The notes under the pieces were generated by a model. The model was not told the DNA's origin. It saw only the letters and a program-made list of their open reading frames with translations, and made no database searches. Source: Candidatus Methanophagaceae archaeon (lineage in GTDB: Archaea; Halobacteriota; Syntropharchaeia; Alkanophagales; Methanospirareceae). Taken from it: DNA of 35,468 nt. The position numbers and the translations under genes were made by a program. Position 1 is the stretch's first letter. Every line of letters begins with the position of its first letter. Where the stretch lies: contig QENJ01000220.1 of NCBI GenBank assembly GCA_013374505.1, positions 1 to 35,468 of the forward strand, in the 5' to 3' direction. Below are positions 30,555 to 35,468 of the stretch, piece by piece.

Positions 30555-31838
30555 ATGGCAAAAGAAGACAACCATCTATTCTTTGGTGGTGTGGACGTTG
30601 TAGAACTGGCTGAACGATACGGTACGCCGCTCTATGTGACAGATGAGACAATGTTAAGAGCGAATATCAGGAATTATAAACGTACTTTCGGGAAGCCCAA
30701 CACGGACATAGATACCGACATATTCTTTGCGGTAAAAGCAAACGGTAATTTAGCGATTTTGAAGGTGCTGGCACAAGAGGGTATGGGTGCGGATGTGTTT
30801 TCAGCAGGCGAACTCCATCTTACTAAGTTAGCGGGCATACCACGTGAAAAGATTTTGTTCAACGGTAATTCAAAGAGCGAAGACGACTTAAGAACTGCGG
30901 TAGAGTCGGGTGTAAAGATCTCAGTAGATTCGCGTGACGAGCTGAGCGCTTTAGCTGCGGTTACTGACGAGCTGGGCAAAGAAGCGGCGATAGCCATACG
31001 AGTAAATCCTGATGTATCGCCTGCGGTAAATCCCAAAATAGCCACGGGCTTAAAAGAATCGCAATTCGGGGTGCCATACCACGAAATTATATCTGTCTGC
31101 GAAGAAGCAGAGCAGTATAGAAACATTGCTCTTAAAGGCTTGCATTGTCATATCGGCTCGCAAATACTGAAGTTAAACGTATTTGGCGAAGCTGCGGAGA
31201 AGATGATGAACCTCGTTGAGCAATTACATGAACGTGGAATGGAACTCGAATTCGTGGACCTCGGTGGCGGGCTTGGAATCGGTTATAGTGACGAGGATAA
31301 AAAGATAGTGCCTACGCCTGACGACCTCGCAGAAGTAATATTACCTATTCTTACAGATAGGATGAATTCATTGGGGCTAAACCTGAAGCTAATCCTGGAG
31401 CCGGGACGGTCTATTGCCGGCACTACCGCCATACTACTAAGCCATGTGAATGCGGTTAAGCCCGCGCATAAGATTTTCGTGGCGATAGATGCCGGGTTTA
31501 ATTTGTTGATACGACCTGTGATGTACGATGCGTACCATGAAGTGGTGGTAGCGAACAGGCAAAATGAGCGTGCTTCGACTCTATATACCGTTGTTGGTCC
31601 CGTATGCGAATCCGGAGATATAATCGCGAAGGACAGGATGCTGCCGGCAGTAAAACGAGGCGATTTGATTGCAATACAGGATGTCGGTGCTTACGGTTTC
31701 TCGATGAGTTCGCAATATAATGGACGGCCGAGATGTGCCGAGGTGCTTGTAAATGATGGCACGGTGGATTTGATACGGTCGAGAGAGGGCATAGAAGATT
31801 TGTTGAGGACACAAAAGGTTCCGGATAGGTTGATGTGA
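30555..31838 (+). CDS. lysA: Diaminopimelate decarboxylase
   Basis: PLP lysine in 'AVKAN', 'HCHIGSQ', 'LEPGRSI', 'GPVCESGD', 'GAYGFSMSSQYN'. Confidence 0.97.
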   Translation: MAKEDNHLFFGGVDVVELAERYGTPLYVTDETMLRANIRNYKRTFGKPNTDIDTDIFFAVKANGNLAILKVLAQEGMGADVFSAGELHLTKLAGIPREKILFNGNSKSEDDLRTAVESGVKISVDSRDELSALAAVTDELGKEAAIAIRVNPDVSPAVNPKIATGLKESQFGVPYHEIISVCEEAEQYRNIALKGLHCHIGSQILKLNVFGEAAEKMMNLVEQLHERGMELEFVDLGGGLGIGYSDEDKKIVPTPDDLAEVILPILTDRMNSLGLNLKLILEPGRSIAGTTAILLSHVNAVKPAHKIFVAIDAGFNLLIRPVMYDAYHEVVVANRQNERASTLYTVVGPVCESGDIIAKDRMLPAVKRGDLIAIQDVGAYGFSMSSQYNGRPRCAEVLVNDGTVDLIRSREGIEDLLRTQKVPDRLM

Positions 31839-32761
31839 GTGAAAAAGGCATGAAAATCGGGATATTAGGTCCTGCCGGGACGTTTACGGAAACGGCGGCA
31901 GTGCAGTGGCTGAAAGAGTCAGTAAAGAATGATACAGGCGAGATAAACTATTATGACACGATATTTGAGGTAGCGGAAGGACTGTTAAAGAACGAGGTGG
32001 ACTATGGGATTGTACCAATCGAGAATTCTCTGGAAGGTTCTGTGGGTGAGACCTTAGATGTTCTATCAGGCGAAAATGCCGAAGGCGGTATGCAGATAGT
32101 AGGCGAGATATTAGTGCCGATACGGATTTGTTTGATGGCGAAACAAAACCTTTCTTTAAAAAAGAAAGCTTTAGCAAAGAAACATGTTTATTCGTCTCAC
32201 GAAGACGATGCACAGGCTCTTGCCGGAATAAGAACGATAGTTTCTCGCCCGCATGCACTGGCGCAGTGTAAGCGGTTCCTACGGGAACGGTGTAAAGGGC
32301 TGGAACTGAAAGCTGTGGACAGTACGGCGGGTGCTGCGAAATTGGCTTCGCAATCAGAAGAGTTAGCAGCGTTAGCGTCTGAAGAAGCAGCGGACAAATA
32401 CGGGCTTAATATAATCGTGGAAGATGTGCAGGACCGAGATAGTGTTACGAGATTTGTCGTGCTTTCTTCTTCTGGTATAAAAACATATCCTACCGGTAAC
32501 GATAAGACTTCTATATTGCTATACCTGAAGGACAGTCCGGGTGCGTTATACGATACTTTGGGTGAATTTGCACAACGTGAAATAAGCCTCACGAAGATTG
32601 AGTCACGACCGTCAAAGAAGGCTATGGGTGATTATATGTTTCACATCGATTGCGAAGGGCATATAGAGGAGAAGAAGATAAAAGAAGCGTTAGAAGGTGT
32701 TAAAACTAAGGTGGTGATGTTGAAAATGCTGGGTGCTTATCCTGTGGCAAGTAACTATTAA
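31835..32761 (+). CDS. pheA: Prephenate dehydratase with ACT domain
   Basis: 'LGPAGTFTE', 'VPIENSLEGSV', 'TRF', 'LTKIESRP'. Confidence 0.94.
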   Translation: MSEKGMKIGILGPAGTFTETAAVQWLKESVKNDTGEINYYDTIFEVAEGLLKNEVDYGIVPIENSLEGSVGETLDVLSGENAEGGMQIVGEILVPIRICLMAKQNLSLKKKALAKKHVYSSHEDDAQALAGIRTIVSRPHALAQCKRFLRERCKGLELKAVDSTAGAAKLASQSEELAALASEEAADKYGLNIIVEDVQDRDSVTRFVVLSSSGIKTYPTGNDKTSILLYLKDSPGALYDTLGEFAQREISLTKIESRPSKKAMGDYMFHIDCEGHIEEKKIKEALEGVKTKVVMLKMLGAYPVASNY

Positions 32762-32769
32762 GATTGTGG

Positions 32770-32840
32770 TTTCTAAAAAGGTTGCGGGTAAACAGCACAG
32801 GAGTGATTTTAACCATCTGGCGGATCAAACTACGAGGCAC
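32770..32840 (-). ncRNA. 5' fragment (71 nt) of a group II intron-like element
   Basis: 66/71 identical to 34445-34515; begins GTGCC on the minus strand; truncated inside a palindromic repeat. Confidence 0.65.
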
Positions 32841-32871
32841 CGTCCCACTCTGACTAAAATCGGAGGCATCC
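32841..32871 (-). repeat. REP-like / IS200-IS605-end-like hairpin (copy 1)
   Basis: Minus strand GGATGC-CTCCGATTTTAGTCAGAG-TGGGACG directly upstream of GTGCC. Confidence 0.55.
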
Positions 32872-32937
32872 ATGAGAGCAGTTGAATAAACTATAAAGGT
32901 GAACTATATAGAAGGGCAATATTATAGTTGATTAGAT

Positions 32938-33735
32938 ATGGAGTTTAACGAGAGCGATTTGATTAGGGAATATCTAAAATTTTGTGACTTAAGAAATAAA
33001 GCACTTCATACGAAAGAGATGGACTTATCCAACATAGACTGGTTTTATCCAACAAAACTCCTCCCATTAGGCATTTTCATAAAAACAAATCGCGATATTT
33101 CTGTTATCCCTCCAACCTCCTCTTATGTTTTAAGTTATTATAATATCATCACTAAGGGTAAGCAACACGTTTCTCCTAGAAGTAGCTATCATCCTATTGC
33201 AGAAATACCACCCGATGAGCATCAACGAGAAAGAATGCTTGAACCGTTATATGCTTTTGAAAGTGATTATATTGGTGGTCGTAATGCCTTTGCTTATCTT
33301 ATTGGTGAATTAGTTGATAATGTGTACCAACATTCAAGCTTCTCAACCGCGTATATAATGGCTCAGAAATATCCAACAAAGCGATTTATAGAGATCAGTA
33401 TAATGGACAATGGGATTACTATACCAGGATCTTTCAAAGAAGCGGGATTTGAATTTGATGATACCACCGCCCTTTCAGAAGCAATAAAAGGGCAATCTAC
33501 AAAACACGATAAAGAAAGAGGGTTTGGCTTAATATCTTCCATAAACTTACTTACAAAGGGTTTAGATGGAGAATGTTTAATCGTGTCGAGAAAGGGGGGA
33601 TTCACCGCGGAAGGGGAAGGCGAGAAAACTTTTTATAATATGGGTAAATATTATGCACTAAACGGCACATTAATATCTATTAGAGTACCTTATATAACTA
33701 AAACGGTGAATATATATGACTACCTTGAGCAGTGA
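32938..33735 (+). CDS. Stand-alone HATPase_c (GHKL) protein
   Basis: N box 'GELVDNVYQHS', G1 'DNGITIP', G2 'RGFGL'; AT-rich. Confidence 0.85.
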   Translation: MEFNESDLIREYLKFCDLRNKALHTKEMDLSNIDWFYPTKLLPLGIFIKTNRDISVIPPTSSYVLSYYNIITKGKQHVSPRSSYHPIAEIPPDEHQRERMLEPLYAFESDYIGGRNAFAYLIGELVDNVYQHSSFSTAYIMAQKYPTKRFIEISIMDNGITIPGSFKEAGFEFDDTTALSEAIKGQSTKHDKERGFGLISSINLLTKGLDGECLIVSRKGGFTAEGEGEKTFYNMGKYYALNGTLISIRVPYITKTVNIYDYLEQ

Positions 33736-34048
33736 AATAGTATTGCAGCTTGCAGAACACATATCTGAGAATTTAGCTTTTAGAGATAGTGTAGACAATT
33801 TATTTAGTCATATAGCTAGTCTTGAAGAAACTAATATAATAATCGATTTTTTAGGAATCAAATCAATAACCGGCTCATTTGCACATCAATACATAATAAA
33901 CAAAAAAAAGGCTATAAAACATCTCACCGAGAGAAATATGCCCCTTGATGTTAAAAAGATGTTTGAACTAGTAGAACGGCGAAATTTAAAACCTAGAGAA
34001 ATAAGCACTGAACCCATAGAGGTCTTAGATGTCGTTTCCAGTTTTTAA
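33716..34048 (+). CDS. STAS-like (DUF4325-type) protein
   Basis: 'IIIDFLGIKSITGSFAHQ' matches the STAS 'lDfsgv..i.sSf' pattern; overlaps the HATPase gene. Confidence 0.75.
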   Translation: MTTLSSEIVLQLAEHISENLAFRDSVDNLFSHIASLEETNIIIDFLGIKSITGSFAHQYIINKKKAIKHLTERNMPLDVKKMFELVERRNLKPREISTEPIEVLDVVSSF

Positions 34049-34051
34049 GTT

Positions 34052-34515
34052 GCAGAGTAAGAAGAGAGCTTTCAACCTCCGTCCCCTCATCGAACAGCAC
34101 GTACGGATTTCCCGTATGCTGCTCTCCTTTCAAACTTTAGGAAAGTTTGACCAAAAAGTTTCGCAAATACCGACCATAATCGGTCATGCTAACCCTCTAT
34201 GGGGATTCCAGTTTTCACCCCCCGTAGAGGCATCGAACTTCCCCAAGTGGAGGGCGGGTCGTCGTTTAGCACATCCCACCTCGGGTTCGCTTGCGCTTCG
34301 GGCTGAAGACCGCCTCAGGCTCTTCAGAAAACTTTTAGAAAAAGTTTTATCAAAAATGCTTTCGCTATCCCCCTTACGAGGGACACCATGCCACTGTTGG
34401 CTTCTGCATAATCCAAGCCGTAGGCGGATGTTTTTGATTAGCCTTTTCTAAAAAGGTTGCGGGTAAACAGCACAGGAGGGATTTTAACCCTCTGGCTGAT
34501 TAAATTACGAGGCAC
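34052..34515 (-). ncRNA. ORF-less group II intron-like ribozyme (~464 nt, probably degenerate)
   Basis: Domain V GAGCAGCATACGGGAAATCCGTACGTGCTGTTC (34124-34092; AGC triad, AC bulge). Domain VI GAGGGG...CTTCTTACTCTGC with bulged A. 5' GTGCC followed by a GAGGG-TTAAAAT-CCCTC hairpin. No RT ORF. The 5' boundary is inferred from the sister copy. Confidence 0.8.
34130..34458. repeat. Three copies of a ~29-bp palindromic repeat (AAACTTTT-AGA-AAAAGTTT-nATCAAAAA type)
   Basis: 34130-34157, 34328-34356 and an inverted copy at 34431-34458; partial copy at 32770-32783. Confidence 0.75.
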
Positions 34516-34547
34516 GCCGCCACACCCGAATGAATTCGGGTGCATCC
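34516..34547 (-). repeat. REP-like / IS200-IS605-end-like hairpin (copy 2)
   Basis: Minus strand GGATG-CACCCGAA-TTCA-TTCGGGTG-TGGCGGC, a perfect 8-bp stem directly upstream of GTGCC. Confidence 0.65.
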
Positions 34548-34583: not shown

Positions 34584-35468
34584 TCATTTAACATCATTTT
34601 TTAAAAACGTAACATTTCCTCTATTTATTCTATTAACATATAACTCTATCTCCCCACTCAATTCAGATTTTTTTGCATAACCATTTTCAATCTTGATTAA
34701 CGAACCTATACTTAGCCTGTCGACAAGATCAGTATATTCATCCCAAAGTGATACATCAATGCTACCAGTGTCATCTGATATGTAAACATGTGCTATTTTT
34801 CCTCCTTCAAATTCATTTTTAACACCAACCGAATCAACTTTGCAGATAATATTGCAGAGTTTATTTGGCTCAATACCAGCAATTTTTGTAATGCTCTCTT
34901 CTATATCACCATCATACATTGGAATATTCTCGCCAAATTTTGATAAATCTCCCAAAAATAGCGTTTTCCAGTTTATACGACCTGATTCAACAGCCTCTTT
35001 GATTTTTTTCTGAGTAGGATTCAAATAAGCACTCTTTCCTGTTTTAACCTCCATAAAAATTATCGTAATCTGATCATCTGTATTTCTATCTTTAACGTCG
35101 GTATATCTATCAAAAATCACATAATCAATAGGGCTTCCTATGAAACGAGCATCTGCTGGATTGTATTCAAATATTGGCAGAAGAGGGGCCATTTGTTCCC
35201 CAATTCTTCCTTTTAAACTGGCACGACTCGTTTCAAGTGTTTTCTTCTTTATAGCTTTTTCCGCTTCCCTCTTCCAATTTTCAAATCTTGCTTCGTAATC
35301 TCTTTCTATTGATGCCTTAAGTTCTTCTTTTTGCCGATTAAAAAATTCTTTTCCTTTCTCTTCTACCCTTTCGAGAACTTCACCCTTCGAAACTGCTTTA
35401 TATATCAAAAACCCAAGAATAAAACCAAAAATTAGAGCTAATAATATGAAAAATATCATTCCATCCAT
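34584..35468 (-). CDS. Membrane-anchored Holliday-junction-resolvase-like (Endonuc_Holl, PD-(D/E)XK) nuclease fused to an RPA/SSB-type OB fold
   Basis: N-terminal TM + coiled coil; 'SRASLKGRIGEQMAP...ARFIGSPIDYVIF...EVKTG'; C-terminal 'ISDDTGSIDVSLWD...IKIENGY'. The ATG sits at the window edge. Confidence 0.82.
   Translation of the reverse strand: MDGMIFFILLALIFGFILGFLIYKAVSKGEVLERVEEKGKEFFNRQKEELKASIERDYEARFENWKREAEKAIKKKTLETSRASLKGRIGEQMAPLLPIFEYNPADARFIGSPIDYVIFDRYTDVKDRNTDDQITIIFMEVKTGKSAYLNPTQKKIKEAVESGRINWKTLFLGDLSKFGENIPMYDGDIEESITKIAGIEPNKLCNIICKVDSVGVKNEFEGGKIAHVYISDDTGSIDVSLWDEYTDLVDRLSIGSLIKIENGYAKKSELSGEIELYVNRINRGNVTFLKNDVK

Follow-up and report, generated by a model that had tools for sequence, protein, structure and literature searches.

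An ORF-less group II intron and a truncated sister copy behind hairpin repeats in an ANME-1 archaeon: a family that behaves like class C introns

Contig QENJ01000220.1 of a Candidatus Methanophagaceae archaeon (assembly GCA_013374505.1) belongs to a 2.57-Mb, 79%-complete metagenome-assembled genome (MAG) of the ANME-1 lineage of methane-oxidising archaea, and the whole contig, 35,468 nucleotides (nt) long, is the window considered here. Near its right end, on the minus strand, a unit composed of the letters GGATGC, a hairpin, a short spacer and an intron-like sequence occurs twice (units A and B), and between the two units lies an AT-rich pair of genes that seems foreign to its surroundings. 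The locus raises the question of what the units are and how they came to bracket these genes. A first-pass annotation of the DNA, made from the letters alone, proposed two group II intron-like insertions behind one family of palindromic hairpins, possibly an undescribed archaeal arrangement in which introns lacking an open reading frame (ORF) target or move gene cassettes. The follow-up analysis indicates that the intron sequences of the window are very probably a full and a truncated member of a group II intron family specific to ANME-1, which resembles class C (IIC) introns in its behaviour, homing behind stem-loops, and that the mosaic arrangement of the locus probably arose by recombination.

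The coordinates of both units (34547 to 34445 and 32871 to 32770) and the match of 66 in 71 bases between them hold in the sequence and in blastn, which aligns 71 bases with 5 mismatches (E 3e-22). Unit A opens with GGATGC (34547 to 34542), followed by an 8-bp stem (CACCCGAA at 34542 to 34535, paired with TTCGGGTG at 34530 to 34523) closed by a TTCA loop, a spacer TGGCGGC (34522 to 34516), and an intron that begins at G 34515. This intron is complete, its ends having been fixed against 13 other full copies in an alignment; its match to the domain V/VI model RF00029 covers model positions 1-77 of 77 and scores 47.8 bits against a gathering score of 40. Domain V remains paired, two of its pairs having changed in a compensatory way compared with the family, and the domain VI stem is degenerate. 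Unit B is not a second intron but a 71-nt remnant, which runs from G 32840 to A 32770 and stops inside the first of three AT-rich modules recognised in intron A, 8 nt from the stop codon of pheA. Because the stub ends inside that module, A and B can be assigned to one module-bearing subfamily, which is also found at unrelated sites, e.g. on contig C165 of genome G004 (genomes are numbered with G and their contigs with C, the window being G000:C2). Upstream of GTGCC, the first letters of the intron, identity between the units collapses in a pairwise MAFFT alignment, and mainly GGATGC and scattered bases are common. Both hairpins are members of the GGATGC family, as had been proposed, but only one is still a good palindrome. 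Folded as DNA, hairpin A reaches -10.3 kcal/mol (z -2.63; 2 of 200 shuffles equally good), and an exact 30-nt copy of it exists on G000:C44; hairpin B reaches -1.4 kcal/mol (z +1.08; 177 of 200 shuffles equally good). Because hairpin B has no stable fold while its ortholog in the relative G005 still folds (8-bp stem, -5.5 kcal/mol, z -1.98), it is best described as a decayed member. Contigs assembled from public runs of other studies confirm the junctions: one of 1347 nt spans positions 32600-33791, and one of 164 nt from an RNA library spans 33925-34088 with 0 differences.

Intron A is one of several group II introns in its genome, in which eight domain V matches exceed the cut-off and reverse transcriptase (RT) fragments of other introns are also present. 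One other copy of its own family, 866 nt long and retaining the first 49 RT codons, lies on C101. Within the archaeal family f1, 51 of 65 other genomes contain this intron family, with up to 21 matching segments per genome; neither of two genomes of the sister family f2 does. An exact 28-nt intron motif gathered 49 loci, all from ANME-1/Methanophagales-type MAGs bar one MAG labelled Proteobacteria; on the contig concerned (L194, JADFWK010000058.1) the intron stands behind a GGATGC hairpin, and this is probably a mis-binned ANME-1 contig. A 1953-nt member of the family at G076:C78 encodes a 430-amino-acid (aa) protein with RVT_1 (153.5 bits) and GIIM (53.1 bits) domains and a TIGR04416 match of 429 bits, in which no endonuclease domain was found with Pfam. 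Compared with structures in PDB by phmmer, this protein scores 273, 237, 237 and 232 bits against IIC RTs, 170 against a IIB and 157 against a IIA enzyme, while a control RT of another intron class in G000, itself a partial protein, gives a flat 74-63 bits. At E<=1e-60 the RT is matched in 22 of the 66 genomes searched, full-length and without stops in G076 and G066 only, and the same search found no RT of this family in G000. An RT/maturase acting in trans, as the first-pass annotation envisaged, does exist in the family, but not in this assembly. Copy A, with no ORF, three modules, a weakened domain VI and no cognate RT in its assembly, is probably immobile.

The insertion point is evident on C101, where the intron splits an otherwise complete repeat, with ...GGTAGC on its 5' side and TGGTTGTGACTT on its 3' side. 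Among 11 further full copies in relatives, the 3' exon consists in seven of one or two bases followed by GGYTGGGGCTT (or GGTCGTGAC, GGTTGGGAC); three copies stand behind a second type of hairpin and are followed by a further hairpin, and one fits neither description. When the 5' exons of the 49 loci are sorted by regular expression, 15 are of the GGATGC type, 20 of an AAGCCC-hairpin type, 10 are other and 4 are unanchored; by eye, about 18 belong to the GGATGC family (two of them split in the loop by a MITE, a miniature transposable element of the inverted-repeat type, and two partial), about 26 carry an AAGCCC/AAACCC hairpin, two carry other hairpins and three have no evident hairpin. In an overlapping sample of 20 loci a hairpin precedes the intron in 19 (13 GGATGC, 5 AAGCCC and 1 other), with none in the remaining one. 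The hairpin ends 7-9 nt before the intron in approximately 46 of the 49 loci, and the last two or three exon bases are mostly xGC, xGT or xCT. Entry is thus found either after the GTGG-N3-4 of the GGATGC repeat or behind the second hairpin family, and the two main families have different stems. Because the introns enter at a constant distance behind stem-loops that belong to two or more sequence families, they behave like class C introns, and the homing behind stem-loops anticipated by the first-pass annotation is borne out; nor are the 5' exons of the other copies unrelated to each other.

The target hairpins are also involved with other sequences. The second target hairpin (TTAATTAAGCCCTTTCAGGGCTTGCGGGGAGC) is preceded by 40-50 nt of conserved upstream sequence at loci L155, L160, L174, L178, L184 and others; this conservation shows the hairpin to belong to a repeated element, which may be the end of a different mobile element. 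A MITE-like insert of ~335 nt with terminal inverted repeats (GTGCCAAATGGC...) splits a GGATGC repeat in its loop at G000:C95:2815-3185, and MITE-split repeats form the 5' exon of introns in other genomes, at L117 (G010:C27), L124 (G069:C712), L169 and L179.

The GGATGC element itself is a repeat of about 50 nt, in which the tag is followed by a covarying stem of 6-8 bp, a TTYA loop and the sequence GTGG-N3-GGYTGGGGCTT. With a six-copy seed, nhmmer finds 41 matches in G000 at E<=10 and 39 at E<1. Of the latter, 31 lie just 3' of an ORF on the same strand, 6 behind an ORF on the opposite strand and 2 at contig ends, and same-strand arrays occur on C10, C95, C5, C36, C317, C67 and C28. A strict pattern, GGATGC-N24-34-GGYTGGGGC, matches 192 times in 79 genomes of the class, while its reversed control matches 7 times. 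Within the family, 41 of 65 other genomes have it; G069 alone holds 40 copies, six of them in a row on one contig (G069:C92); outside the family matches are few and counted by pattern alone, and one such genome has as many control matches. RNAalifold returned no structure from a MAFFT alignment of 20 repeats, in which gaps shift the stems out of register, and base pairs were hence counted on loop-anchored copies: 19 copies give 132 Watson-Crick pairs, 5 G-T, 1 A-C and 14 other oppositions. Because two to four Watson-Crick pair types occur at each stem position, the pairing itself is conserved. Position, orientation and the excess of G-T over A-C (5 versus 1, small numbers) fit an element that is read from the sense strand, either as the 3' end of a transcript or as DNA in single-stranded form. 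Rfam at permissive thresholds gave no match on the 20 repeats. Of 20 ORFs that precede repeats, 11 have no Pfam family, one is a housekeeping enzyme, and families among the others include CHAT-TPR, TumE toxin, a DDE fragment, bPH_2, DUF4202/HD and 2TM. As a separate observation, large secreted-looking proteins with a common C-terminal domain (...TGSYPQIHH...DWIPAIRLE) are encoded at G000:C36:2-5062, C28:4640-5275, C40:4390-6648 and C101:4494-6674; most of these genes directly precede a hairpin repeat, and the one on C101 precedes the intron-bearing repeat.

The features of the right end of the window are collected in Table 1. The nuclease-like gene, as the first-pass annotation had it, stops (34584-34586) 36 nt before the GGATGC of unit A; its GC content is 0.33-0.36. 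It is present in none of seven relatives of the genus and has one distant match among 25 relatives, and because the synteny search within the genus finds no ortholog, the ancestral 3' flank of hairpin A is not recoverable by that route. Unit A lacks the 3' arm of the repeat, GGYTGGGGCTT. The HATPase-like and DUF4325 genes overlap by 20 nt, and the latter is convergent with intron A, its stop lying 3 nt from the intron 3' end. That the pair is AT-rich is confirmed (GC 0.32-0.38, versus 0.43-0.50 for pheA and lysA), but the naming of its products depends on weak Pfam matches, one below and one at its cut-off; PADLOC and NCBIfam offer no family for either protein, the single match being DrmA at 15.6 bits. 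Orthologs of pheA, the conserved anchor of the locus, occur in 33 of 41 genomes, G000 counted in.

Table 1. Features at the right end of the window, in the order of the minus strand.
Feature	Positions	Strand	Evidence
Accessory gene, Endonuc_Holl and OB-fold nuclease-like	34584..35468	-	PF10107 124.7 bits, PF01336 35.6 bits; start at contig end
Hairpin repeat A, 5' part only; 5' exon of intron A	34516..34547	-	nhmmer E 7.2e-9
ORF-less group II intron A, 464 nt	34052..34515	-	RF00029 at 34126 to 34052, 47.8 bits
AT-rich module 1 (~40 nt) in intron A	34419..34462	.	nhmmer E 1.8e-7; reversed relative to modules 2 and 3
AT-rich module 2, UGAU...CUGA C/D-box-like hairpin	34324..34364	-	nhmmer E 3.9e-7
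AT-rich module 3	34130..34168	-	nhmmer E 3.8e-5
DUF4325 (STAS-like) gene	33716..34048	+	PF14213 23.0 bits, at cut-off
HATPase_c-like gene	32938..33735	+	PF02518 24.6 bits, under the 26.4 cut-off
Hairpin repeat B, decayed	32841..32871	-	nhmmer E 0.23; GGATGC 32871 to 32866
5' stub of sister intron (unit B), 71 nt	32770..32840	-	66/71 identity to 34515 to 34445
pheA (prephenate dehydratase + ACT), conserved anchor	31835..32761	+	PDT 172.6 bits, ACT 39.6 bits

Comparison with relatives shows how the locus is put together. G005, whose pheA is 95% identical, matches the window at 94% over pheA, hairpin B and a stub B that ends at the same point; homology ends at GGATGC, beyond which G005 carries a methylase-like gene in the orientation of the HATPase-like gene. 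In G001, hicB-hicA and an intact, unoccupied repeat adjoin pheA, and in G002 a broken half repeat is found at the pheA locus. The HATPase-like gene is present in only one of 40 relatives, G007. No intron-free allele of the cassette was found among these relatives, as the pair in G007 is also accompanied by the intron. The intron's last ~120 nt and the gene pair recur, 93-94% identical to the window, in G007 and in L232, a 52-kb metagenome contig. The upstream gene and the hairpin differ among all three. Beyond the pair, G007 has an intact repeat and another gene; L232 there continues like the window, with hairpin B, stub B and pheA. Units A and B are separate insertions behind different members of one hairpin family, as had been suspected; B is common to G005, and the block of A to G007 and L232. 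Distant versions of the pair are followed by an intact same-strand repeat (L236, 66% aa identity) or by a repeat that carries an intron (L238, 64%). In the window the pair is inverted relative to the repeats and adjoins the exact last base of intron A.

Similar exchanges are seen at other loci. G001 lacks a 3.8-kb stretch of C95 that holds three genes and is bounded by two repeats; the joint falls within GGATGGGGCTT. Both G005 and G002 have other sequence in place of a 670-nt segment of C10, and homology resumes exactly at the GTGGCG/TGGTTGGGGC boundary, or in G001 9 nt earlier; at the third repeat of this contig the flanks in G002 lie on two contigs, both ending in the repeat. Homology breaks at GGATGC, inside the stem, in the 3' arm of the repeat or inside the intron. 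Because relatives hold other genes (hicAB, methylase) and the breaks fall at the repeat or the intron, hairpin-delimited variable gene content is supported, and the variation downstream of pheA that the first-pass annotation looked for is indeed seen among close relatives. The further proposal that introns target or move the cassettes fares less well: nothing shows an intron moving genes, and the seams are as expected from recombination between repeated introns and hairpins.

The course of events may be pictured as follows. By analogy with the known mechanism of IIC introns, the intron ribonucleoprotein would read a stem-loop in single-stranded nucleic acid together with a few bases 3' of it, and would reverse-splice at the fixed distance of 7-9 nt behind the stem. 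Its main target in the genus is the GGATGC repeat 3' of mostly accessory genes, entered in the sense orientation between the spacer and GGYTGGGGCTT. In unit A, the repeat behind the nuclease-like gene was invaded; unit B is an older insertion beside pheA, of which everything beyond nt 71, and also the 3' arm of the repeat, was lost before G000 and G005 diverged. The HATPase-like and DUF4325 genes form a foreign accessory module, whose distant versions carry a same-strand repeat of their own. Recombination at dispersed intron copies, repeats and modules may then have swapped the flanks, repeatedly, to give the present mosaic, in which the intron would not be the carrier of genes. In this picture the identity and family of the intron, its insertion point, the repeat family, the variable gene content and the positions of the breakpoints are direct findings, and the ribonucleoprotein mechanism, the route of recombination and the immobility of copy A are inferred.

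Several points weigh against this account. The 5' end reads GUGCC(U) in all copies and not GUGYG, the fifth base being C; the boundary is drawn where variable exon bases give way to conserved intron bases. Domain V reads GAGAGC..., which gives the triad AGC, whereas CGC is typical of IIC introns. The group-II-D1D4 models of Rfam do not match the intron at E<=10 and permissive thresholds, which is weak evidence because the models are bacterial. Covariation between exon-binding and intron-binding sites (EBS1/IBS1) was sought in the alignment of 14 full copies, and EBS1 could not be placed. The provisional assignment to class C goes by the best solved relatives, size and behaviour rather than from a class tree. 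Occupied sites are 1-3 nt longer than empty ones between GTGG and GGYTGGGGC, the gap being 4-6 nt in occupied repeats once the intron is removed and mostly 3 nt in empty ones. No ligated-exon junction was seen in RNA contigs, and a joint of 34516/34517 to 34051, which would mark spliced exons or an empty site, was not seen in contigs of public runs, although contigs cannot show absence. The breakpoint survey covers three loci, chosen for holding repeats, and the same regions contain other breakpoints, namely a 331-nt indel off the repeats and an IS-like dispersed repeat at query 335-530; the 331-nt stretch (G000:C10:14980-15311) is absent from G001, G002 and G005, and a partly similar stretch lies on C124. 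Finally, the junction of the cassette with intron A, exact to the base, is not what plain recombination predicts. It could reflect an event mediated by the intron, and gives the best hint of such joining at this locus.

Such a role of the introns also figures in the alternative in which the repeats are recombination sites of an integron-like cassette platform, and introns analogous to the IIC-attC group help to form or move cassettes, for instance in the manner of the Leon-Roy model (an intron behind a gene recombining with an intron inside a repeat). Resemblances are not lacking: same-strand arrays have spacings of 0.8-2.3 kb (C10, C95 and C5 of G000, besides the six copies on G069:C92), repeat-bounded blocks come and go with joints inside the repeat, the genes before repeats are mostly orphan or accessory (11 of 20 without Pfam; TumE, CHAT-TPR, hicAB), three upstream gene and hairpin units are joined to one intron-cassette block, and the cassette adjoins the exact intron 3' end. 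As with introns of the S.ma.I2 type, a class C type intron sits on a repeated structured site after cassette-like genes, with copies at seams of variable blocks, and for IIC-attC introns a role in cassette formation has been proposed (PMC3001079). The alternative is nonetheless judged unlikely. The integron integrase (TIGR02249), for which the first-pass annotation suggested a scan in trans, is over its cut-off in none of five repeat-rich genomes (G000, G004, G007, G016 and G069; 79-93% complete), the best score being 105.5 against a 265-bit cut-off, with 14 control genomes alike. By eye, the repeat appears to lack the attC layout (R''/L''...L'/R'), and its 5' flank is not conserved. IIC-attC introns are described as lying on the bottom strand, opposite to cassette transcription (PMC3001079), whereas those considered here are in sense with the upstream gene (31 of 39 repeats; C101, L238, G004). 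Moreover, the breakpoints, at GGATGC, inside the stem or in the 3' arm, share no one fixed position, and being scattered they fit homologous or microhomology recombination better than a site-specific enzyme. A more daring version dispenses with the integrase: in ANME-1 the repeat would tag accessory genes at their 3' ends, an intron family of class C type would have specialised on the tag, and intron copies and repeats would serve as portable homology, and possibly as a joining device through mis-primed or partial reverse splicing at the exact 3' end, for the capture, inversion and exchange of gene blocks. This is speculative, and at present doubtful.

The origin of the repeat leads to another alternative, in which it is an element of the repetitive extragenic palindrome (REP) or REPIN kind, or one derived from IS200/IS605, spread by a Y1 (HUH) transposase and merely exploited by the intron. 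Like REP elements and their composites (bacterial interspersed mosaic elements, BIME), the repeat is short, palindromic, present in many copies per genome and 3' extragenic, bears a conserved tag by its stem and marks hot spots of rearrangement; its loops are also hit by the ~335-nt MITE. In agreement with one half of the first-pass annotation, it is a dispersed, REP-like repeat at gene 3' ends rather than a one-off terminator; the other half, that the hairpins might be IS200/IS605 right ends, did not hold. All six Y1_Tnp matches in G000 are IS200/IS605-like fragments or interrupted copies, they have end hairpins of their own (GGCACTTGTGCTTAAGTAC...), and none of the six loci has a Y1 gene flanked by inverted GGATGC hairpins. 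Four of the six (G000:C5:6211-6522, C317:2421-2561, C3:1073-1234 and C28:2981-3309) lie upstream, on the same strand and within 1-3 kb, of arrays of genes and GGATGC hairpins, a co-location that speaks for such a spread but may simply reflect accessory islands. The repeat also departs from REP elements in its tag, GGATGC and not the GTAG or CGTC of REP elements, in its 3' arm, in its uniform orientation to the upstream gene and in its archaeal host, and no REP-associated tyrosine transposase (RAYT) was found in G000. Spread by a Y1 enzyme is accordingly improbable. That units A and B are one segmental duplication of a hairpin and intron 5' end, as their 93% identity over 71 nt and the same position of module 1 might suggest, is largely refuted, since the two hairpins have different stems and loops, the identity breaks off exactly where the intron begins, truncated B is common to G005 and L232 while the hairpin and upstream gene of A differ in G007 and L232, and the module-bearing subfamily occurs at unrelated sites.

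Taken as a IIC-like family that homes behind hairpins, the introns of the window can be compared with described systems. They resemble archaeal group II introns (Methanosarcina and others) in their concentration in Halobacterota/Methanomicrobia and in having ORF-less copies beside RT-coding ones. Dai and Zimmerly reportedly described, in 2003, the homing of archaeal group II introns into intron ORFs; the present family homes into hairpin repeats. The likeness to bacterial IIC introns includes a ~430-aa RT without endonuclease domain, solved IIC RTs as closest solved relatives and a compact ribozyme, besides insertion a few nt 3' of a stem-loop in sense to the upstream gene, a behaviour described in a 2015 review (PMC4424553); examples of such introns with solved RTs are GsI-IIC and that of Eubacterium rectale. 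Differences include the archaeal host, a target that is one conserved repeat, entered at a set point inside it, together with a second conserved family of hairpins, in place of a generic terminator, the triad, 5' end and D1-D4 result given above, and copies that are mostly ORF-less or decayed, with an intact RT in 2 of 66 genomes. Both the IIC introns found behind terminators and the IIC-attC introns of attC sites have been described well (PMC4424553, PMC3001079); Table 2 of the 2015 review names Eubacteria as the sole hosts of IIC/class C. An archaeal-C clade of intron-encoded proteins (IEPs) is presented in a 2022 survey of complete genomes, which counts up to 10 introns per archaeal genome and makes no mention of ANME (PMC8919778); the ANME-1 IEPs UA.I6-8 are given as similar to class E (PMC7923331). 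A literature search on group II introns in ANME-1/Methanophagales found no account of the intron family, the hairpin target or the repeat. The arrangement thus appears to be undescribed as to family and repeat, but not in principle, as class C introns are known to target stem-loops and an RT clade of class C has already been published for archaea. The mechanism is a known one, the host lineage and the unusually specific target are new, and the link with exchange of gene blocks is no more than suggestive. Class C introns are the textbook retroelement that reads the shape of DNA and not its sequence, and a related lineage has here proliferated, mostly without ORFs, in uncultured methane-oxidising archaea. 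The dozens of occupied and empty sites offer a natural set from which to derive the rules of structure-guided homing in an archaeon, and a concrete place to ask whether introns help to build gene cassettes. The repeat family, which marks the ends of accessory genes and seams of rearrangement in ANME-1, should be useful for binning, assembly and pangenome studies of ANME-1 MAGs.

The AT-rich modules of intron A are of interest in themselves. They are palindromic and about 40 nt long (GCGAAGCG-TTTTTGATAAAAC-TTTT...AAAAGTTTT), with 21 nhmmer matches at E<=0.01 in G000. In intron copies they occupy varied positions in both orientations, they also occur within Y1 transposase coding sequence, and further examples lie at G000:C3:1050-1093, C317:2381-2425 and C30:6016-6058. 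Base copies of the intron are without modules and copy A has three; variants without module 1 (joint 34408/34460) appear in DNA and RNA runs, and one without module 2 in an RNA run. The module seems to behave like a tiny mobile insertion, with a C/D-box or kink-turn (K-turn)-like look; the snoZ39-like Rfam alignment of module 2 is weak and sub-threshold (19 bits, E 1.3). A deletion between modules 2 and 3, which is also seen in a public run, gives the short introns of G007 and L232, in which the ribozyme core is lost. In an RNA-library contig of run X22 (depth 19.4), the last base of an intron (34052) is joined to the first (34515) with 2 extra letters; this single contig stems from a related copy (8 of 53 letters differ). 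It could represent a circular excised intron or a tandem copy, and does not prove splicing. Elsewhere in the window, a tRNA gene lies at positions 1956-2027 (Rfam, 68 bits).

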